Below, in pieces: positions 29,066-62,802 of a stretch of DNA of 64,000 nt. The stretch lies in UHGV virus genome UHGV-0076293, one strand, 5' to 3'. Numbering within the stretch: the stretch's first letter is position 1; each line of letters opens with the position of its first letter. The notes below the pieces were generated by a model. That model made no database searches and was not told the origin of the DNA. It saw only the letters and a program-made list of their open reading frames with translations. Made by a program: the position numbers and the translations under genes. Source of the DNA: a virus.

Positions 29066-29112
29066 GAGAACCACCCTGTAATGGGGTGGTTCTCCCTTTT
29101 CTTTTTTTTTTC
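29066..29112 (+). terminator. strong intrinsic terminator (gagaaccaccc-loop-gggtggttctc + T-run)
   Basis: 11-bp stem + >12 T. Confidence 0.75.
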
Positions 29113-29125
29113 GATTAAAAATAAA

Positions 29126-29166
29126 CTCAGATATATATTACCTTAGTGAGATTACGCTGTAATCTT
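29126..29166 (+). promoter_or_regulatory. conserved promoter-like element TCAGATATATATTACCTTAGTGAG (copy 1) followed by inverted repeat GATTAC-gctg-GTAATC
   Basis: Near-identical element at 37380-37404; contains TATATTAC; ~50 nt upstream of ATG 29202. Confidence 0.45.
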
Positions 29167-30448: not shown

Positions 30449-30754
30449 ATGAAACCGAGAGCCGACCGAGTAGACGTAATACATTTTGAAGAGTGTGAAA
30501 CCGAGTATCAGGTTAAACGCACTGATTTACGTTTAGTTATTCCTAAGCTAAACGAACCTGAGTGGAACGGCGAGCTGATGGTACCGCTTGCCGAACCAAT
30601 TAAAACGGGGACAGGCGAGATTAATTATCTCCATTTAGAAGCCGCCGGACGCAAAGTAACCGTTTGGCATCTTGCTGACGGTTACAAAACCAGTCAGCTT
30701 ACACGTAAAGCATTTATTCGGAAATTAAGAAAGTCGATGGGAGTTGTGAAATGA
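30449..30754 (+). CDS. hypothetical protein (101 aa)
   Basis: ORF tightly packed between neighbours. Confidence 0.45.
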   Translation: MKPRADRVDVIHFEECETEYQVKRTDLRLVIPKLNEPEWNGELMVPLAEPIKTGTGEINYLHLEAAGRKVTVWHLADGYKTSQLTRKAFIRKLRKSMGVVK

Positions 30755-31287
30755 CAGTTACTGTATCTTTGATTGCAGCAGCGGGACTTAATAATGAAAT
30801 AGGGAAAGACAATAAACTCCCTTGGCATATTCCCGATGACTTGAAGAACTTCAAAGCACTTACGTCAGGTAAGGTTATCGTGATGGGACGTAAGACGTGG
30901 GAGTCGTTGGGATATAAACCCTTACCGAACCGTCACCATGTTATCTTAACACGAAAACAAGGCGGTGTTCCTGACATCGACGGTGTGTTGAACCTTAAAG
31001 GTGGCATGGGGTCGGTTATCGAGTTTCTCAAGAAAGAAGTCGTGGAGAAAGATTACCCGAAAGAAATCTTTATTATTGGCGGCGCAGAGATTTACCACCA
31101 AGCGATGCCTTATGCAGATAAGATTTACTTGTCTCGTGTTGAGGTTAAGGTAGAGGGCGCGGATGCGTTCTTCCCTGAAATCGATCGCGATGTCTTCAGA
31201 CTGAATTACAACCTGACACACTATTCGAAACCAGAAAGTGGTATTCCGCGTTGGCATTATCAGATTTGGAAAAGAGATGGGCGCTGA
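30751..31287 (+). CDS. folA: dihydrofolate reductase
   Basis: VSLIAAAGLNNEIGKDNKLPWHIPDDLKNFKALTSGKVIVMGRKTWESLG and IIGGAEIY match DHFR signature regions; 178 aa. Confidence 0.85.
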   Translation: MTVTVSLIAAAGLNNEIGKDNKLPWHIPDDLKNFKALTSGKVIVMGRKTWESLGYKPLPNRHHVILTRKQGGVPDIDGVLNLKGGMGSVIEFLKKEVVEKDYPKEIFIIGGAEIYHQAMPYADKIYLSRVEVKVEGADAFFPEIDRDVFRLNYNLTHYSKPESGIPRWHYQIWKRDGR

Positions 31288-36414: not shown

Positions 36415-37215
36415 ATGAGCAATTTACTTACTTTCCGCATGTCTGGTCAAACGTTAATGCAGATTGACGAGTACGAAAAAGAACATTTCGCTAAACCGTC
36501 TAAACTGTTAGAACGTTGCTTAAAGGTTATTCCAGGCGGCGAGCATTGTCAGCTAGATTTCGTCATGGCGTCTTCTGCTGACAAAACGGTCTCTGTTATC
36601 TACACGGTTGACGGAGTACAGGGCCATCGCTTATTACCGATTGAAGAAAAAGGTTCTTTGGGTAATTTGTTGTTCTTGCACGCAATCACGACTGCGGTAG
36701 TGACGGGAGCACTGGAAGCGCAGTACGGTTTCGCGTATTGTTATTTCTACGCACAGAAGTTGGCGAATGCGGTAGTTCCAGGAGAACCAGAAACGTATCC
36801 GAAGTATATCGAACGTTTGCTTCCGACGCATTTTGCTGAGTCTGACGACTATGAGTTCAATGCTTTCCGTTTCACGATGGTTGGCGAAGCACGCGATCCT
36901 GAAAACACCATTGCGTTACGTGCTGTTGTTCGTTACGCAGTAATTTCGTCTGACAGCGGAATGGCAAGCAACTTCAACGAAGTGTTCCCGGTTATGCAAC
37001 TAGGTCCGTATATCACGTTTAATGCGTACGTACCGTTTACTTGTCAGTTAATCGGCCCGCAGGATAACGATTCTATCCTCCCGATTACTGAAGAGAAAGG
37101 TCTGCATATTCGTGACGCTGTAGAAGTCATCAATGATAAACGTTTTACGATCTCATCAAAAAGCGGTATTGCTGATGAAGAACTTGCGGTCGTGAACAAA
37201 ATGCAAGTGATGTAA
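36415..37215 (+). CDS. hypothetical protein
   Basis: ATG at 36415 with AAAGGA RBS (track begins at TTG 36409). Confidence 0.5.
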   Translation: MSNLLTFRMSGQTLMQIDEYEKEHFAKPSKLLERCLKVIPGGEHCQLDFVMASSADKTVSVIYTVDGVQGHRLLPIEEKGSLGNLLFLHAITTAVVTGALEAQYGFAYCYFYAQKLANAVVPGEPETYPKYIERLLPTHFAESDDYEFNAFRFTMVGEARDPENTIALRAVVRYAVISSDSGMASNFNEVFPVMQLGPYITFNAYVPFTCQLIGPQDNDSILPITEEKGLHIRDAVEVINDKRFTISSKSGIADEELAVVNKMQVM

Positions 37216-37220
37216 AATTA

Positions 37221-37258
37221 TCCCGTTACCTTTGTGGGTAACGGGATGTCCTTTTATT
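37221..37258 (+). terminator. intrinsic terminator (tcccgttacc-loop-ggtaacggga + T-rich)
   Basis: 10-bp stem + ttttattt. Confidence 0.65.
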
Positions 37259-37379
37259 TACTCGTAAATGCGTCTTAGACGCTGTTTTACACCTTAAGAC
37301 GATTAATGGTGTTTAAAAAATAAAAGGTCGTCAGAATGCGATACAGCGCGTTTTAGAGGGTGTTTTAATTAAAAATATT

Positions 37380-37415
37380 TTCAGATATATATTACTTAGG
37401 TGAGAGAATTACGTA
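37380..37415 (+). promoter_or_regulatory. conserved promoter-like element TCAGATATATATTACTTAGGTGAG (copy 2) followed by palindrome ATTACGTAAT
   Basis: Matches 29126-29150 at 23/24 positions; sits in the longest intergenic gap (37216-37452), ~50 nt before ATG 37453. Confidence 0.45.
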
Positions 37416-37452
37416 ATACTCATTTATCGAATACCTAATTAGGAGCTATATC

Positions 37453-37596
37453 ATGATTTCTGTAAAACACAAAAAAGCTATCTTCGCTGTTGTTATCGCT
37501 GTTGTTCTGGGTTGCCTGTACCTGGATATCGATAAAGGCTACGACACTTGCATCGACAACGGTAATTCCGTTGCGCAGTGCACTGGTCGTGGTTAA
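37453..37596 (+). CDS. small hydrophobic protein (47 aa), possible lipoprotein/membrane peptide
   Basis: Not in ORF track (<60 aa); AGGAG RBS; sequence MISVKHKKAIFAVVIAVVLGCLYLD... with lipobox-like VLGC; own terminator. Confidence 0.45.
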   Translation: MISVKHKKAIFAVVIAVVLGCLYLDIDKGYDTCIDNGNSVAQCTGRG

Positions 37597-37603
37597 TGTA
37601 TAA

Positions 37604-37632
37604 GGCACCTTCGGGTGCCCTTAATTTTTTTA
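37604..37632 (+). terminator. intrinsic terminator (ggcacc-ttcg-ggtgcc + T-run)
   Basis: Tetraloop hairpin + ttaattttttta. Confidence 0.6.
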
Positions 37633-37650
37633 TTAATTGGAGCATAAACG

Positions 37651-38466
37651 ATGATTACTATTAAAGATTATTTTCCGCGTGGGTTGAGCAATGAAAACTT
37701 CGTTCCAACTGAAGACATTGCCATCGTTGCAGAGTCCAGCGATAAGTCTTTTAAACTCTACTTGAGTACGGCAGCAGGAAAATCCACTCTTATCCTTCGT
37801 GAACCTGAAGTGATAAGCATCTGCTCGTTTGGGGGTGGTGTAGAAGGAACGATTAACTGGTTGAAATCCAGAATGCATCGTTTGCTTATCGTGAATACCG
37901 ATCCTGTGATTCGTTTACAGCAATTGAAATCGTTGAATGAAATTATCGTCGGATTATTGGAACATGAAACGTTTGGTAATGCTGAGATTGCGGAAGCGAT
38001 TAAATCTGTAGAACTAATCGAGTGGAGCGATATCGAATACGAACGTGCTGGGTTATTCGCAATGTACGGTGATGATAATCCCGTTGCGTTTGCACAAACG
38101 TTGGATAATGTTACCGTAACAGCGCGCGTATTGTTTGGTTTACAACGTGTTGAGTTTGAACTGAAACACGTCTACGTGAGCAATAAACCGGAGATGGTGG
38201 AGACATTGATTCGTGCTTTCGCATACCCGTTAGACGGTGAATGGGAACAGCAGATTAATGAAGCGTTAGAAGCCATGCATTTCCTGGCTGAAACGTTAAG
38301 GAAGGATGAGAAATTGAAAGGTCGTGTTTATCCAGAACACGATTTTGTTTGTGAAGAATGTGGAGCACAGTATCAAATCCGTGTTCCTTTAACCGGCCTA
38401 ACATTCCCGCAAGCCAACGTGCAATGTAAGGAATGTGGTCATGTTCAATACGTAGCGATTAAATAA
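37651..38466 (+). CDS. hypothetical protein with C-terminal zinc-ribbon (CEECG...CKECG)
   Basis: 271-aa ORF, GGAG RBS; two CxxC pairs 24 aa apart near C-terminus. Confidence 0.5.
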   Translation: MITIKDYFPRGLSNENFVPTEDIAIVAESSDKSFKLYLSTAAGKSTLILREPEVISICSFGGGVEGTINWLKSRMHRLLIVNTDPVIRLQQLKSLNEIIVGLLEHETFGNAEIAEAIKSVELIEWSDIEYERAGLFAMYGDDNPVAFAQTLDNVTVTARVLFGLQRVEFELKHVYVSNKPEMVETLIRAFAYPLDGEWEQQINEALEAMHFLAETLRKDEKLKGRVYPEHDFVCEECGAQYQIRVPLTGLTFPQANVQCKECGHVQYVAIK

Positions 38467-38472
38467 AAGCAA

Positions 38473-38516
38473 CCCCTAATCCCGAAAAGGATTAGGGGTA
38501 CACTTTATTTATTTTC
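38473..38516 (+). terminator. intrinsic terminator (cccctaatcc-cgaaaa-ggattagggg + T-rich)
   Basis: 10-bp stem + tttatttatttt. Confidence 0.65.
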
Positions 38517-38538
38517 GCTCTTAAAAGGAAATTGTGTC

Positions 38539-38694
38539 ATGAGAAATGTTAATGCAATGCTTAACCAGGCATTTGTTAACCAACAGCGTTTTCAGGAACG
38601 CTTAGCACAACTTAAAACACAACACAGACCACCACAACAAAGAGTGGTTAAGAGCAAGTTCGGCGAAATGGTTTTCGAAAGAAAATCTTTCTAA
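38539..38694 (+). CDS. small basic protein, member A of a 3-gene paralog array (51 aa)
   Basis: Not in ORF track; AAAAGGAA RBS; C-terminal half RVVKSKFGEMVFERKSF resembles the two downstream small ORFs. Confidence 0.45.
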   Translation: MRNVNAMLNQAFVNQQRFQERLAQLKTQHRPPQQRVVKSKFGEMVFERKSF

Positions 38695-38702
38695 TAACCG
38701 TT

Positions 38703-38727
38703 AGGGGTGTGACAGCACCCCTTTTTA
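38703..38727 (+). terminator. intrinsic terminator (aggggtg-tgacag-cacccct + T5)
   Basis: Hairpin + T-run. Confidence 0.55.
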
Positions 38728-38844
38728 CGCTTTAACTTTTCCAAAGAGAAGTTAAAGCAGTAAGGACTGTTGGCGCAGTCCTTACTTGTCATCGCTATTA
38801 CAGAAACGTGATAGCACAATTCTAATTTTTAGAGGCGATCAGAA

Positions 38845-39012
38845 ATGTTCGACAGTATTACACAAATTTTTAACACTACCGTAAACAATCACGCTCAGCA
38901 AGCGAAGTTTAATGAACGATTAAGGGAAGTTCAACAATTAGGATTAAATAAAAGATTAAAATCTTCCAATAATCCTCGAGTACAGATCTTCACCGAAAGG
39001 AGAAGTAACTGA
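38845..39012 (+). CDS. small basic protein, member B of paralog array (55 aa)
   Basis: Not in ORF track; ...QQLGLNKRLKSSNNPRVQIFTERRSN closely parallels member C. Confidence 0.45.
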   Translation: MFDSITQIFNTTVNNHAQQAKFNERLREVQQLGLNKRLKSSNNPRVQIFTERRSN

Positions 39013-39020
39013 TAAAAACA

Positions 39021-39050
39021 AGGTGAGCTGTTGGAGCAGCTCACCTTTTA
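39021..39050 (+). terminator. intrinsic terminator (aggtgagctg-ttggag-cagctcacct + tttt)
   Basis: 10-bp stem. Confidence 0.55.
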
Positions 39051-39108
39051 CAACGCCATTACGTTTCCGTAATGGATTTCTTTAATCACCCTACAAAGAG
39101 GGCTTACC

Positions 39109-39282
39109 ATGAACAATGGTTACTACTTTACTGACAAAATGCTTGCAGAACAATATGCAGCAAAAACCAATTTACAGCAACGTATCTACGAGTATAGTCA
39201 ACTCGGTGCGAATAAACGATTAAAACCATCAACCAACCGTTTCACACAGATAATCACTGAAAAAAGGAGTGAACGCTACTAA
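39109..39282 (+). CDS. small basic protein, member C of paralog array (57 aa)
   Basis: Not in ORF track; AAGAGGG RBS; ...SQLGANKRLKPSTNRFTQIITEKRSERY. Confidence 0.45.
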   Translation: MNNGYYFTDKMLAEQYAAKTNLQQRIYEYSQLGANKRLKPSTNRFTQIITEKRSERY

Positions 39283-39417
39283 CTAATAAAAGGGGGTGTG
39301 CTACCACCCCCTACTTAGTTCAGCAGTTGTCTTTCGTTCATAAATATTAGATGTCTTGTTTTTTTTTGCTTTTCGGGACGCATAAGGGGTCGTAGGGGGA
39401 GCCGAAGCTCCCCAGAC

Positions 39418-40980
39418 TCAAAAGAGTTCGTCACCCATACCGCCTGTAAAGACGTTAATCGACGATGCAGTCACTGTTTCTTCTTTATCGCAATCCCAAG
39501 GCAGAATGCCAACTTCACGGAAAGGTATTACTGTATAATGGTAAGCTTCTTTAGTATCGATAATTGTACGGTGTTTACCACGTTGTACTTCTAAGTAACT
39601 ATGCCCATTGACAACACGTTTGTTAAAATACATCTCACCGTCAGCTTCGTTATCCAAGCTGGAGCAGTTATCGTAAAGACCGCGACCTGGTAAGTTCTTA
39701 CAGAAACTTGCTGGGTCTAACGCTTTTAATTTTTTGCCTTCCGGTGAGATTTGGTGTGGCGCTAACAAGAAACCACGGTTACGTACTACCTGGATGTTTC
39801 GAGCGATACGATAAATTTCTTTAATGTCGCTACCGGCAATCCCGTTACCGTGACCTGCTTTACTGATAGTCCCGAAATAGTCTCCGCGAATCCCAGCTAC
39901 ATGATAACCTCGACGCTTTAAGTCCAGTATTAAGTCGTTTAAGTAATGTATTTTAAAATCTGAGTTTGTGTGTTTCTGAAAGATGTACTCCCAACCGTTA
40001 GCCCGCATTTTACTACAGAGGTAGTCCGACATTTTTGTGTTGTGTAAAGCTTTCTCTTCGTCGGTAGCGTTTTCAGAAGCAACCATAACCGGTGCTTCAC
40101 CTTCAAAATGACCGTAGAGCGCTTGGTACGCATACGCCAAGTTAACGTCCAGTTCGTTCTCTAAACTTAAATCGAGAATAACCGGCTGCAAATCACCTTT
40201 AACGTTTTCCATTACTTTTTCAGGCGTATTGAATACCGGAATACTGATAGACAACAACAGACTAAAAAGCGATTTACAGTTAAAGGGCAATGCAGGCATT
40301 AGCCAAAGTTCTTCGGTAATCCCTTTGTTACAACCCAGCATCTGGTTAATGGCTTTCCATCCGGTACGTAAACCATTACCCGCTGCTTTCTTACTGATTG
40401 AGTCGAACACATGTACGAACGGTGCACGGTTATCCGTAATAAGCTCACCAACTAGTGAGGGAATCTTATTATGAGAGCGTTCACTGAACGTAGAGAGACT
40501 ATCTCTGAGGTCGTTGAGCGCCGTTTGTAAATCAACGCGCGTTTCGGTTCCGTTCAGTGCGCCTAACGTACGACCTAATTTTTGTTTCAGTTGTACGCCT
40601 TGAATAGCTTGACGTAATTGGAAGTAGTATTGTGCTACTTGACGGTTAAGATGCTCGATGCGTGCTTCTGGTTCTTCTGGAATATCATCTTCCAGGAATT
40701 TGGTAATCGTATCGTATAGAGGACGTATTTGCGTAGTGGCCAGTTTCAAACGTTTCATGACGTTTGTGTGGTCGTAAGGCATACCGCCGTCTATGATGGA
40801 TGTGATGATATCCTTGATTTCGACGAGGGCGGCACGTTCGTCACCTTCCTCTACGTAATCAGGAAGCTTAGCCTCTAACAGCACTTTTCTTATGACCTCG
40901 TGATCCTTCTCAGGGTCGGTCAGCAGACTTTCAGTGTATAGTGTGGCTAATGCGGTTATCAACATCATTTTGTTATTCAT
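39418..40980 (-). CDS. hypothetical protein (520 aa)
   Basis: Long minus-strand ORF; start codon only 13 nt from divergent + gene. Confidence 0.5.
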   Translation of the reverse strand: MNNKMMLITALATLYTESLLTDPEKDHEVIRKVLLEAKLPDYVEEGDERAALVEIKDIITSIIDGGMPYDHTNVMKRLKLATTQIRPLYDTITKFLEDDIPEEPEARIEHLNRQVAQYYFQLRQAIQGVQLKQKLGRTLGALNGTETRVDLQTALNDLRDSLSTFSERSHNKIPSLVGELITDNRAPFVHVFDSISKKAAGNGLRTGWKAINQMLGCNKGITEELWLMPALPFNCKSLFSLLLSISIPVFNTPEKVMENVKGDLQPVILDLSLENELDVNLAYAYQALYGHFEGEAPVMVASENATDEEKALHNTKMSDYLCSKMRANGWEYIFQKHTNSDFKIHYLNDLILDLKRRGYHVAGIRGDYFGTISKAGHGNGIAGSDIKEIYRIARNIQVVRNRGFLLAPHQISPEGKKLKALDPASFCKNLPGRGLYDNCSSLDNEADGEMYFNKRVVNGHSYLEVQRGKHRTIIDTKEAYHYTVIPFREVGILPWDCDKEETVTASSINVFTGGMGDELF

Positions 40981-43885: not shown

Positions 43886-43898
43886 GATAGATATTATC
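43886..43898 (+). promoter_or_regulatory. AT-rich promoter-like element GATAGATATTATC (copy 2)
   Basis: Identical to 1884-1896; ~35 nt upstream of strong RBS (AAAGGAGA) and ATG 43934. Confidence 0.3.
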
Positions 43899-62511: not shown

Positions 62512-62789
62512 AACAGTGTTCGGATGTATTGTATGCGGAAACGATTGAAACGCCAACCCACGACGGTGTGAAATCGCTCCAGCTACACGTTTGTAGTAAA
62601 CACGGCAGTCTGTCGTTAAACTTCCGTGTAGGTTTAGATTATTACATGGTTCGTAAGAGCTATTTAAGTTGTGACGGTGACCTCTATCCGGTTGTCTGGA
62701 ACAACGATTATTCTAAGTTTGTTTATCCACTTGAAGAACACCGACGCACGGTTTATGAATTTGTGAAAGCTGTTCTCGAGGGGTTCTAA
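62418..62789 (+). CDS. hypothetical protein (123 aa)
   Basis: ATG with GGAGA RBS. Confidence 0.45.
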   Translation: MFYRELQQYTDALRKATIDAHNNLRDVVSVIEQCSDVLYAETIETPTHDGVKSLQLHVCSKHGSLSLNFRVGLDYYMVRKSYLSCDGDLYPVVWNNDYSKFVYPLEEHRRTVYEFVKAVLEGF

Positions 62790-62802
62790 AGAGGGTATTG
62801 TG

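Follow-up and report, generated by a model that had tools for sequence, protein, structure and literature searches.

Question and locus layout

The locus considered here raises the question of whether three very short open reading frames (ORFs), spaced by hairpins and lying ahead of a convergent helicase gene, are genuine genes and, if so, how they are exchanged and expressed. They lie in the window (the whole 64,000-nucleotide stretch of UHGV-0076293 analyzed), which is part of an ≈222-kb jumbo phage that infects enterobacteria and is a distant relative of SPN3US and phiEaH2. Our best explanation, to which we assign a probability of about 0.6, is that the segment is one early transcription unit of an SPN3US-related jumbo phage ending in a recombining cassette array: a virion RNA polymerase (RNAP)-type promoter (core 37381–37395) would drive the gene of a 47-aa mini-protein, followed in order by an attenuating hairpin, the gene of a 271-aa zinc-ribbon protein, a bidirectional terminator, and an array of three paralogous genes.

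A probable early promoter and the first two genes

The unit begins in an ORF-free gap of 237 bp (37216–37452), as the first-pass annotation had measured it; its description there as the longest noncoding gap in the window is not clearly right, because 62512–62799 is ORF-free over 288 nt. The gap and the genes that follow it contain these features:

37219–37248, no strand: bidirectional terminator hairpin (13-bp stem and T tract, both strands) ending the upstream block (268-aa gene, phrog_8163)
37270–37367, plus strand: upstream stretch of the gap, semi-conserved and carrying GCGT(C/T)TTAGA(C/G)G-type direct repeats at 37270–37289 and 37348–37367
37365–37406, plus strand: probable virion-RNAP early promoter of ≈40 to 42 nt, ATTAAAAATA..TCAGATATATATTAC and then TTAGGTGAGAG
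37453–37596, plus strand: 47-aa mini-protein with a membrane anchor, encoded first in the unit (full-length match to phrog_8574, E 3e-23)
37604–37634, plus strand: GGCACC-TTCG-GGTGCC and then a T-rich run, a terminator or attenuator that follows the 47-aa gene
37651–38466, plus strand: acidic 271-aa protein whose C terminus carries a zinc-ribbon-like CxxC...CxxC (phrog_10180, E 3e-8)

The hairpin at 37219–37248 is kept at the equivalent place in all relatives. A megablast search returned a 42-nt match to the promoter motif in 30 SPN3US- and Erwinia-type jumbo phages, and the motif is near-identical, with an identical core TCAGATATATATTAC, at the orthologous gap in four genera; upstream of it, GCGTTTGAGAGCGTT.TAGAGGG is kept in SPN3US, ChrisDB, phiEaH2, and Asesino. 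The identical core also occurs at position 29127 of the window, and the complete 222-kb relative harbors eight sites, all on the plus strand and each 71 to 75 nt upstream of an ATG, a fixed spacing that makes a virion-RNAP early promoter the probable identity of the motif. Early-promoter motifs are known for RNAP-encoding, phiKZ-like jumbo phages, and the gap motif fits their description (PMC7598289) and agrees with the early promoters of a dRNA-seq study of phiKZ (PMC8244752): both comprise a strongly conserved, AT-rich motif (≈10 nt) that is preceded by an A/T-rich stretch and present in several copies per genome that front blocks of small nonstructural genes with a leader of fixed length. 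The candidate motif differs in being specific to the group formed by SPN3US, the Erwinia phages, and the window phage. The earlier view of an early-type region with a promoter gap is therefore well supported.

The first gene encodes a conserved membrane mini-protein with KHKK at its N terminus plus a hydrophobic helix, VLG-C21, and, toward the C terminus, Y-D-x-C-x2-NGNSVA-x-CTGRG, in which the C-x9-C block is conserved among homologs; tblastn finds matches in 60 phage records. The lipobox Cys21 is present in ChrisDB and absent from the SPN3US and phiEaH2 homologs, so that the hydrophobic ORF annotated earlier stands but “lipoprotein-like” does not describe the family. The second protein, previously called a zinc-ribbon protein, indeed ends in CEEC...CKEC, and both CxxC pairs are kept in the phiEaH2, Asesino, and SPN3US (gp70) homologs; its Pfam zinc-ribbon matches are weak (E 0.004, under cutoff), and its AF2 model is unusable (pLDDT 52.6).

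Three small ORFs are protein-coding members of a paralogous family

The small ORFs are found at the positions and with the lengths first reported; all are basic, and each is preceded by a purine-rich ribosome-binding site (RBS):

38539–38694, plus strand: cassette ORF type A (ORF1), 51 aa, pI 11.7; RBS AAGGAAA; kept in loci L021, L022, and L147
38845–39012, plus strand: cassette ORF type B (ORF2), 55 aa, pI 11.4; orthologs in 13 loci
39109–39282, plus strand: cassette ORF type C (ORF3), 57 aa, pI 9.8; nine DNA variants in relatives

These are real protein-coding genes. Their reading frames remain open in 24 loci as well as in SPN3US, with one to six stops in each alternative frame; pN/pS is 0.14 to 0.20 for types A, B, C, and E (0.15 to 0.20 for the three ORFs of the window, with 0.15 for type A), and 56 of 92 variable columns fall at third codon positions (24/12/56 by codon position). 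Type B (pS 0.505 versus pN 0.099; 6/6/19) and type C (pS 0.39 versus pN 0.058; 10/4/17) show this individually. The ORFs are short, and NCBI PGAP leaves types A and D unannotated in two complete records, as might be expected of chance frames in a hairpin-rich noncoding spacer, but the comparative data already contradict that reading, which we regard as having a negligible chance of being correct. Since the ORFs are real and conserved, the earlier caveat that their frames might not be kept in related genomes falls away.

Types B and C share 49% identity over 39 aa (E 4e-11) and are, by this comparison, clear paralogs. A direct comparison of ORF1 with ORF2 gives no significant similarity (E 1.5), and the original grouping of all three as paralogs thus stands for ORF2 and ORF3 and extends to ORF1 only via intermediates from relatives (type D) and SPN3US gp71/gp72. 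Smith–Waterman shuffles connect the types in two chains with z > 5, A-D-B-C and B-F-E, in which type A is linked to type D of relatives with z 5.4 and to SPN3US gp71 with z 5.2. When each type in turn is left out of the profile, B, C, D, and F are recovered (E 1e-6 or better) and A and E are missed; each of these two is tied to the family by a single intermediate (z 5.4 and 6.7). The family profile also matches SPN3US gp71 (E 3e-4) and gp72 (E 8e-4), which occupy the equivalent slot.

The cassette proteins are predicted to form one amphipathic helix, with the core F-x2-R-[LIVM]-x-E-[VYIL]-x2-L-G-[LA], and a basic tail ending in Q-[IL]-[FIV]-T-E-[RK][RK]-S; the AF2 model of type B consists of a helix (residues 2–35) and a disordered tail (pLDDT 69). 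Searches against Pfam and PHROG returned no Pfam and no functional PHROG match, homologs outside the phage clade were not found among 1.84 billion representatives, and none of the searches yielded functional evidence. From their size, charge, position, and turnover, an anti-defense or host-takeover role is plausible, and we infer that these are dispensable accessory proteins that would act early in infection by binding a host target or a nucleic acid.

A four-hairpin module joins the cassettes

The region harbors 14 terminator-like hairpins versus 2.8 ± 1.8 in shuffled sequences. Those of the array are as follows:

38472–38499, no strand: T0, bidirectional terminator that separates the 271-aa gene from the array (11- to 12-bp stem, both strands)
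38703–38722, plus strand: H1, terminator-like GC-rich hairpin GGGGTG-TGACAG-CACCCC and then TTTTT
38729–38758, plus strand: H2, 13-bp palindromic hairpin GCTTTAACTTTTC-CAAA-GAGAAGTTAAAGC, a sequence-conserved junction common to all cassettes
38759–38786, plus strand: H3a, 11-bp hairpin directly adjoining H2; its stem type is associated with ORF type B downstream, and it also scores as a minus-strand terminator
38794–38815, plus strand: H4a, 8-bp hairpin GCTATTAC-AGAAAC-GTGATAGC with one U·G pair, in the ORF B leader
39020–39047, plus strand: H3b, hairpin AAGGTGAGCTG-TTGGAG-CAGCTCACCTT between ORFs B and C
39056–39075, plus strand: H4b, hairpin CCATTACG-TTTC-CGTAATGG in the ORF C leader

The module of four consecutive hairpins (H1–H4) that joins the cassettes is the main structural feature of the locus and is absent from the first-pass annotation, which had given each ORF its own terminator. 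That description holds for ORF1 (GGGGTG..CACCCC and five T); the hairpin after ORF2 is followed by only four T, and that after ORF3 lacks a plus-strand T tract. A cassette unit consists of H3, H4, a leader with RBS, the ORF, and H1, with successive units joined through the 30-nt palindrome H2. H3 and H4 types track the type of the downstream ORF, H4 variants in relatives being specific to cassette type, and the junction between ORFs B and C in the window has lost H1 and H2.

Pairing is strongly maintained, with 98.3% of cells paired in H2 (one invariant U·G, two covarying pairs) and 99.2% in H3a (7 of 11 pairs covarying among 23 copies). For H2 and H3 combined, pairing extends to 98.7% of cells and drops to 40 to 55% in every slid register, and the covariation score is reached by none of 500 shuffles; nine pairs are changed on both sides, a count that pools paralogous and orthologous copies related by descent and so overstates the number of independent events. 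There are 32 G·U cells on the plus strand, including the one invariant U·G. The hairpins are under selection as plus-strand structures, most probably in RNA; this level of action is likely rather than proven because T·G pairs are also tolerated in single-stranded DNA.

That the hairpins themselves are the functional product (decoy or structured RNAs, such as CRISPR-repeat mimics), with the ORFs incidental, would suit stems kept by compensatory change while loops drift, and one variant, the H3 of locus L025, has GTATAGGCAG in common with what we take to be a type I-F repeat. We consider this very improbable: purifying selection acts on the ORFs and leaves a codon-position signature, Rfam (including its CRISPR direct-repeat families) gives no match up to E 1, and H3 loops vary freely between strains and even invert (the H3b loop is the exact reverse complement in locus L015), which makes sequence-specific recognition unlikely. 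The T0 loop is likewise inverted between strains.

A protein–hairpin partnership is somewhat better motivated. The small proteins (pI 9.8–11.7) could bind the phage's own nucleic acids, for example by recognizing the H2 palindrome as part of a regulatory device, in keeping with conservation of H2 in sequence, beyond pairing, in every cassette and with ORFs that are never separated from their modules. However, H2 occurs once in the window and is confined to the array locus in relatives, so that such a device would regulate itself alone; SPN3US gp71 and gp72 have other spacer hairpins and lack H2, and high turnover and loss in sister genera suit accessory genes better than a regulator. We judge this reading unlikely.

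Cassettes turn over between closely related genomes

Across 24 related loci, six paralog types occur in 11 arrangements, among them A-C, A-F, D-F, and D-C-F in genomes 97 to 98.7% identical to the window in the flanks. Cassettes are gained, lost, and replaced between genomes with flanks 97 to 98% identical, a strong form of the rapid diversification that had been proposed as a check, and ORFs and modules always move together. phiEaH2 and Asesino entirely lack the array, which is therefore dispensable for the phage group. The locus is a hyperplastic array of swappable small-gene cassettes, a new result. Homologous recombination in the common H1–H2 block, taking place inside one genome or between relatives that co-infect a cell, would most likely add, delete, and swap cassettes, and would account for six types in eleven arrangements among close relatives.

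The promoter-early stem-loop (PeSL) cassettes in hyperplastic regions of T4-like phages (Arbiol et al. 2010, PMC2839356; Comeau et al. 2014, PMC4122927) likewise pair small genes of unknown function with short conserved regulatory repeats carrying stem-loop terminators, and their indels and replacements between close genomes are bounded by the repeats, with homologous recombination between repeats the likely mechanism. Unlike PeSL, the module here has four hairpins rather than one and no sigma-70 or recognizable phage promoter; the array sits at a single locus rather than dispersed through the genome, and its genes are paralogs of one family rather than unrelated ORFans. Integron attC arrays also separate small, apparently promoterless ORFs by structured palindromic repeats and vary in content between close relatives, but attC repeats are imperfect and those here are perfect hairpins, the cassettes here are paralogs, and the annotation of the whole 222-kb relative includes no integrase.

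Further counterparts are SPN3US gp71 and gp72, two tandem paralogs of 48 aa that are annotated as hypothetical, probably belong to phrog_18219, and resemble the cassette proteins in size, charge, and the F-x-Q-R-[LV] core. They lie between zinc-ribbon gp70 and convergent helicase gp73 and vary in copy number among Seoulvirus genomes; downstream of each come hairpins, a GGGGTG..CACCCC terminator among them. The similarity is remote (profile E ≈1e-3), and BLASTP finds nothing.

Expression at the distal end of the unit

The array is the distal end of the operon and faces the helicase gene, not the operon start at which the small genes were first placed. Two features mark this boundary:

39291–39312, no strand: terminal hairpin AGGGGGTGTG-CT-ACCACCCCCT, called as a terminator on the minus strand only
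39418–40980, minus strand: convergent DnaB-like helicase gene (PF20307 divDNAB, E 5e-126; phrog_3213)

Because the terminator-like hairpins at 37604 and 38472 intervene, the cassettes may be poorly transcribed from the early promoter or use unrecognized promoters. They could instead lie outside the early unit, each module carrying a promoter for the non-virion RNAP (middle or late) that permits later, independent expression, with H1–H3 as insulators. Two strong T-tract hairpins between promoter and array would fit, as would the H4 hairpin in the leader of each cassette and the TAAT box that precedes each RBS by ≈25 nt, and middle and late promoters of phiKZ-like phages are described as not predictable from sequence (PMC7598289). 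Against this, the modules contain neither of the two promoter-like motifs that recur in the complete relative and no sigma-70-type site, and no module precedes the first cassette (A or D), which comes directly after T0. This alternative is possible but doubtful, and we infer early expression of the array.

Within an early unit, H1 and then the T-rich arm of H2 would stop or attenuate plus-strand transcription, H3 and then the other H2 arm would do the same for minus-strand transcription from the helicase gene, and the hairpins would cap each small mRNA with protective stem-loops; the three roles together would make each cassette an expression unit functional at any site of insertion. RNase III hairpins separate the early genes of T7, where stable stem-loops would similarly leave a protective terminal hairpin on each message; T7 RNase III sites have internal loops, unlike the short, perfect 8- to 13-bp stems of the array. 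The hairpin at 39291–39312 probably stops transcription arriving from the helicase gene, since its T tract is on the minus strand only. The synteny of the helicase gene is as in the window in SPN3US, phiEaH2, Asesino, and ChrisDB.

An array of small basic genes in a jumbo phage

Judged from its sequence, the region analyzed here is part of a jumbo phage; one of its neighbors is the gene of a divergent DnaB-like helicase (PF20307, E = 5e-126), and relatives also encode a major capsid protein of phiKZ type close by. Megablast against 50,697 phage records returned a sole match of 42 nt, shared with Salmonella phages of the SPN3US type and with jumbo phages of Erwinia, and none of these 50,697 deposited genomes is a near match to the window phage. 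Close relatives, with 83 to 98.7% identity in the flanking genes, are metagenome contigs of 220 to 228 kb. Two close relatives, E. coli 98232 and Enterobacter ludwigii entries, are deposited as near-identical 222-kb circular "plasmids" (NZ_CP173450.1 and NZ_CP134650.1), whose hosts are a clinical E. coli isolate and an E. ludwigii isolate from a gull; such deposits suggest a carrier state or pseudolysogeny, or a phage carried along with the cultured isolate. The unit that harbors the array is ordered as follows.

37216-37452, ORF-free gap (237 bp)
37219-37248, both strands, bidirectional terminator at the start of the gap (terminator scan)
37365-37406, + strand, putative promoter motif ATTAAAAATA-N4-TCAGATATATATTAC-TTAGGTGAGAG at the end of the gap
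37453-37596, 47-aa gene
37651-38466, 271-aa gene
38472-38499, T0, terminator before the array
38539-38694, + strand, ORF1 (cassette type A, 51 aa)
38845-39012, + strand, ORF2 (type B, 55 aa)
39109-39282, + strand, ORF3 (type C, 57 aa)
39418-40980, - strand, convergent helicase gene

The three small ORFs are genes, as the first-pass annotation had proposed. Their frames are open in relatives and conserved as reading frames, variable alignment columns carry a codon-position signature (24/12/56 at positions 1/2/3), every alternative frame of the cassette ORFs contains one to six stops, and synonymous differences exceed nonsynonymous ones in the four types compared below. All three encoded proteins are indeed basic, with pI values of 9.8 to 11.7. 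In the complete records L147 and L148, which have two cassette genes apiece, NCBI's PGAP annotates just one per record and misses types A and D; small cassette genes are thus under-annotated in public records.

Proportions of synonymous (pS) and nonsynonymous (pN) differences in the most divergent ortholog pair of each cassette type
Type B: pS 0.505, pN 0.099
Type C: pS 0.392, pN 0.058
Type E: pS 0.254, pN 0.035
Type A: pS 0.104, pN 0.016

Paralogy and distribution of the small proteins

The three proteins had been described as paralogs, which holds directly for ORF2 and ORF3 (49% identity over 39 residues, E = 4e-11), whereas ORF1 and ORF2 align at E = 1.5 and ORF1 joins the family through intermediates. 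Missed by a leave-one-out profile built from the other types, ORF1 (type A) connects to them by way of type D (z = 5.4, p = 0.0005) and of SPN3US gp71 (z = 5.2). Relatives harbor three further types at this locus, D (52 aa), E (61 aa), and F (53-56 aa), and Smith-Waterman scores against shuffles connect all six in a chain (A-D, z = 5.4; D-B, 5.6; B-C, 15; B-F, 12; F-E, 6.7). The six types align nearly gap-free around the motif F-x2-R-[LIVM]-x-E-[VYIL]-x2-L-G-[LA].

SPN3US gp71 and gp72 (48 aa each) fill the corresponding slot, flanked by the zinc-ribbon and helicase genes, and are matched by the family profile with E values of 3e-4 and 8e-4, respectively, and by types A and D with z of about 5. 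BLASTP of ORF1 and ORF2 against gp71 and gp72 gave no alignment, and we therefore draw this link from the profile and shuffle statistics; together with the shared slot, these extend the family to Seoulvirus, in which its copy number varies. The slot is empty in phiEaH2 and Asesino and is taken by an unrelated 104-aa gene in ChrisDB. Searches of the three proteins against Pfam and PHROGs remained at noise level (best match phrog_18219, E = 0.086). Beyond this phage clade, an exhaustive HMMER search of 1.84 billion representatives with the family profile and a word-indexed search of 5.8 billion proteins brought up nothing but an unrelated coiled-coil repeat protein, P0016. AlphaFold2 models ORF2 as one helix (residues 2-35) followed by a disordered basic tail (pLDDT 69).

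Cassette turnover between closely related genomes

Rapid diversification between related phages, which the first-pass annotation had proposed to check, is borne out by 11 arrangements of the six ORF types among 24 loci: A-B-C (window), A-C, A-F, D-F, D-C-F, D'-B-C, B-C, B-E, E-C, C-F, and E-F. The array spans about 0.7 to 1.1 kb with defined boundaries, and several two-cassette arrays retain remnants of a deleted first cassette. Assembly artefacts are an unlikely cause, since each of the common arrangements recurs in several assemblies made independently. A-C, A-F, D-F, and D-C-F are found in genomes that are 97 to 98.7% identical to the window in flanking genes; since array content differs between genomes otherwise 97 to 98% identical, selection acts on which small proteins the phage carries. 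The type F cassette carries a frameshift in the Logan assemblies L015 (802-971) and L016 and is intact in five other loci (L023-L025, L147, and L148), and the type D cassette is cut to 40 aa in the group of loci represented by L003; both are cases of cassette decay.

A fixed hairpin module between cassettes

Cassettes are separated by a module of perfect hairpins in fixed order, listed below in general form with the coordinates of the A-to-B spacer of the window, which harbors the complete set.

38703-38722, H1, GGGGTG-loop-CACCCC, then a T run
38729-38758, H2, GCTTTAACTTTTC-GAAA-GAGAAGTTAAAGC
38759-38786, H3 (copy H3a), 11 to 12 bp, ..CTG-loop-CAG.., directly abutting H2
38794-38815, H4 (copy H4a), 8-bp leader hairpin, then a TAAT box and RBS

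In the B-to-C spacer, only H3 (H3b, 39020-39047) and H4 (H4b, 39056-39075) remain, H1 and H2 having been lost. The types of H3 and H4 track the downstream ORF type, whereas H1 and H2 are common to all cassettes; the cassette is therefore H3-H4-leader-ORF-H1, with H2 as the joint. Each small ORF had been assigned its own terminator, which fits ORF1 (6-8-bp stem and T5), is less clear for ORF2 (11-bp stem, T4 only), and does not fit ORF3, whose 3' hairpin lacks a + strand T tract and is listed by the terminator scan on the - strand only. The same scan lists H3a and H3b as - strand terminators.

In 23 distinct copies of H2 and H3, 98.7% of cells are paired, a value that falls to 40 to 55% when the partner is slid by one to three columns. 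Both sides have changed in 9 of the 24 pairs, 7 of these 9 lying in H3 (11 pairs), counts that overstate independent events because the copies are related by descent; the covariation score was reached by none of 500 shuffles. These stems include 32 G.U cells on the + strand, among them an invariant U.G in H2, which would be A.C mismatches on the other strand, and selection on the structure therefore acts on the + strand, in the simplest case on what would be the mRNA.

The H2 palindrome occurs nowhere else in the window, in the IMG/VR relatives, or in the complete 222-kb genome, and we rejected H2 as a genome-wide regulatory repeat since it is confined to the array locus. No family of Rfam 15 matched 37100-39500, even with E relaxed to 1, or the whole window at gathering thresholds, and a tRNA/tmRNA scan found nothing. 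CRISPR-repeat mimicry by H1 or H3, that is, an RNA anti-CRISPR, was likewise rejected, there being no Rfam match and the loops being variable; an RNA-decoy role of the module is a less likely reading of these hairpins.

Separately, in some hairpins one genome has the exact reverse complement of the loop present in a related genome, with stems unchanged, as in the T0 loop (38484-38489) and the H3b loop (39031-39036), compared with loci L003, L015, L017, and L025 (CGAAAA versus TTTTCG, TTGGAG versus CTCCAA, CCTATA versus TATAGG, and CGGTAA versus TTACCG). Loops inverted in this way are the signature of an inversion, arising by recombination between the arms of a hairpin or by template switching between them.

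A putative early promoter and the two leading genes

The ORF-free gap is real, although it is not strictly the longest noncoding stretch, as had been stated, because ORF-free 62512-62799 measures 288 nt. The promoter core TCAGATATATATTAC lies at 37381 and again at 29127 and recurs in the orthologous gaps of jumbo phages of other genera (SPN3US, phiEaH2, Asesino, and ChrisDB), the remainder of the gap having diverged. The complete 222-kb relative has eight sites of the motif with two or fewer mismatches; each is on the + strand, 71 to 75 nt 5' of an ATG start codon. Early promoters of the virion RNA polymerase of phiKZ-like phages are marked near -10 by a conserved AT-rich motif, which bioinformatic searches can locate 5' of early operons (PMC7598289, PMC8244752). 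The gap motif matches this picture and is a putative promoter of this kind, from which we infer early timing. The second copy lies in the following feature.

29110-29160, + strand, second putative early promoter, directly 3' of a terminator

The block of small genes behind it contains dihydrofolate reductase (30751-31287), and the leader of this promoter forms the 5' hairpin AGATTAC-GCT-GTAATCT. A 5' hairpin follows the promoter in 10 of 11 leaders, but that at 37381 is weak (-2.4 kcal/mol, z = -0.15). Repeats of the type GCGT(C/T)TTAGA(C/G)G lie 5' of this promoter (37270-37367), and a related GCGTTTGAGAGCGTT.TAGAGGG block is kept at the corresponding place in four genera and is missing from the promoter at 29127; these elements may be a regulator-binding site specific to the 37381 unit. 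A second promoter-like motif, GATAGATATTATC, akin to the early motif yet distinct, surfaced from k-mer enrichment 5' of genes. It is found at 1885-1895 and 43887-43897 (+ strand) and, in the 222-kb relative, at no fewer than 11 sites, every one of them on the + strand some tens of nucleotides 5' of a gene, and it may mark another temporal class.

Sigma-70-like sites number three in the region against 6.0 expected, with none in the modules, and neither recurrent motif, early or GATAGATATTATC, occurs there. The cassettes could be served by phage promoters of unrecognisable sequence; modules that lack a recurrent motif or a sigma-70 site favor read-through from the early promoter.

The 47-aa ORF is matched along its entire length by phrog_8574 (E = 3e-23), and tblastn finds matches to it in 60 jumbo-phage records. 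Its description as lipoprotein-like is readable in the window protein, by direct reading of an N terminus MISVKHKK-AIFAVVIAVV-LG-C21 with a relaxed lipobox fit (V-L-G-C), but does not extend to the family: the lipobox Cys is absent from SPN3US gp66 (..FAVLSITV..) and phiEaH2 gp253 (..VTVGMMT..), with ChrisDB gp82 having ALA-C at this position. Conserved across genera are the membrane anchor and Y-[DN]-x-C-x2-NGNSVA-x-CTGRG, a C-terminal mini-domain (C-x9-C) that would lie on the periplasmic side; from its position and topology, one may guess at a role such as superinfection exclusion. With a pI of 4.9, the 271-aa protein is acidic; it shares 23 to 27% identity with phiEaH2 and Asesino proteins. 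Its zinc-ribbon label is backed by two C-terminal CxxC pairs, C234-C237 and C259-C262, both retained in the SPN3US, phiEaH2, and Asesino homologs, but not by Pfam, where no curated zinc ribbon scores above its gathering cutoff (best PF13717, 17.3 bits against 30.3, and PF08421, 17.7 against 31.3). AlphaFold2, given only four close sequences, places strands at 229-269 in a model too poor to use (pLDDT 52.6). For both proteins, a large protein collection returned near-identical sequences only.

Relation to PeSL cassettes and possible role of the array

The PeSL-bounded cassette of T4-like hyperplastic regions is the closest described system, both having small genes, stem-loop repeats, and indels bounded by repeats. 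The stem-loop terminator of each PeSL repeat has its counterpart here in the GC-rich stem and T run of H1 and in the - strand terminator score of H3, and the small-gene indels and replacements that PeSL repeats bound have theirs in the 11 arrangements. In contrast, the strong sigma-70-like early promoter of each PeSL repeat is absent from the array modules, and PeSLs occur in many copies over several hyperplastic regions, whereas H2 is found at a single locus. Because its repeats lack a sigma-70 promoter and are not dispersed, the array is a variant and not a member of this group. An integron cassette array lies next to a tyrosine-recombinase integrase, whereas the annotation of the complete 222-kb relative lists neither an integrase nor a recombinase, a weak negative since most genes of this relative are annotated as hypothetical.

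Gains, losses, and swaps of cassettes would result from homologous recombination in the shared H1-H2 block of about 60 nt, the mechanism proposed for PeSL repeats of T4-like phages (PMC2839356, PMC4122927). The geometry further suggests a back-to-back terminator, formed on the + strand by GC-rich H1 and then the T-rich 5' arm of H2, and on the - strand by H3 and then the T-rich complement of the 3' arm of H2. Such a terminator would shield the array from the helicase gene that converges on it and leave each small message with terminal stem-loops.

The small proteins fit accessory genes that act on the host, given their small size, strong positive charge, amphipathic helix, place in an early-type unit, and high turnover, including loss in sister genera; a putative anti-defence or host-takeover role, as first suggested, is compatible with this, and a self-regulatory RNA-binding role for these basic proteins is less likely. 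On the whole, the first-pass observations were largely correct and their interpretation is supported in part. We consider it unlikely, at roughly one chance in five, that H1-H2 is a dedicated exchange site serving a single-locus combinatorial pool of shuffled basic proteins, each directed against a different host defence or factor, with the module guaranteeing expression and bidirectional insulation, as a jumbo-phage counterpart of PeSL and integron systems. The idea that the small genes encode RiPP precursors came from two adjacent radical SAM genes outside the window, in the complete relative (locus L153, 9652-11893; NZ_CP134650.1, 209652-211893). It was rejected, since these genes (209.6-211.9 kb) are some 60 kb distant and what is conserved in the peptides is their central and C-terminal part rather than an N-terminal leader.

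Nucleus-forming and related jumbo phages harbor many small early genes without a known role, and we know of few ways to single out those that matter at the phage-host interface. This locus is a clear marker for such genes, as a compact array whose content varies between near-identical genomes. SPN3US is a genetically tractable model; the short array, its defined boundaries, and its presence in SPN3US therefore make deletion and swap experiments feasible. Termination signals of phage RNA polymerases are poorly known, and the four-hairpin module is a candidate portable unit for bidirectional termination and transcript stabilisation with these enzymes. Were the proteins ordinary dispensable genes, the locus would still be a clean case of modular shuffling outside the T4 group.

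Lastly, a noncoding block past the helicase stop codon (about 39350-39417), consisting of a T9 run, GGACGCATAA, and the hairpin GGGGAGCC-GAAG-CTCCCC, is kept in phiEaH2, Asesino, and SPN3US despite diverged surroundings.
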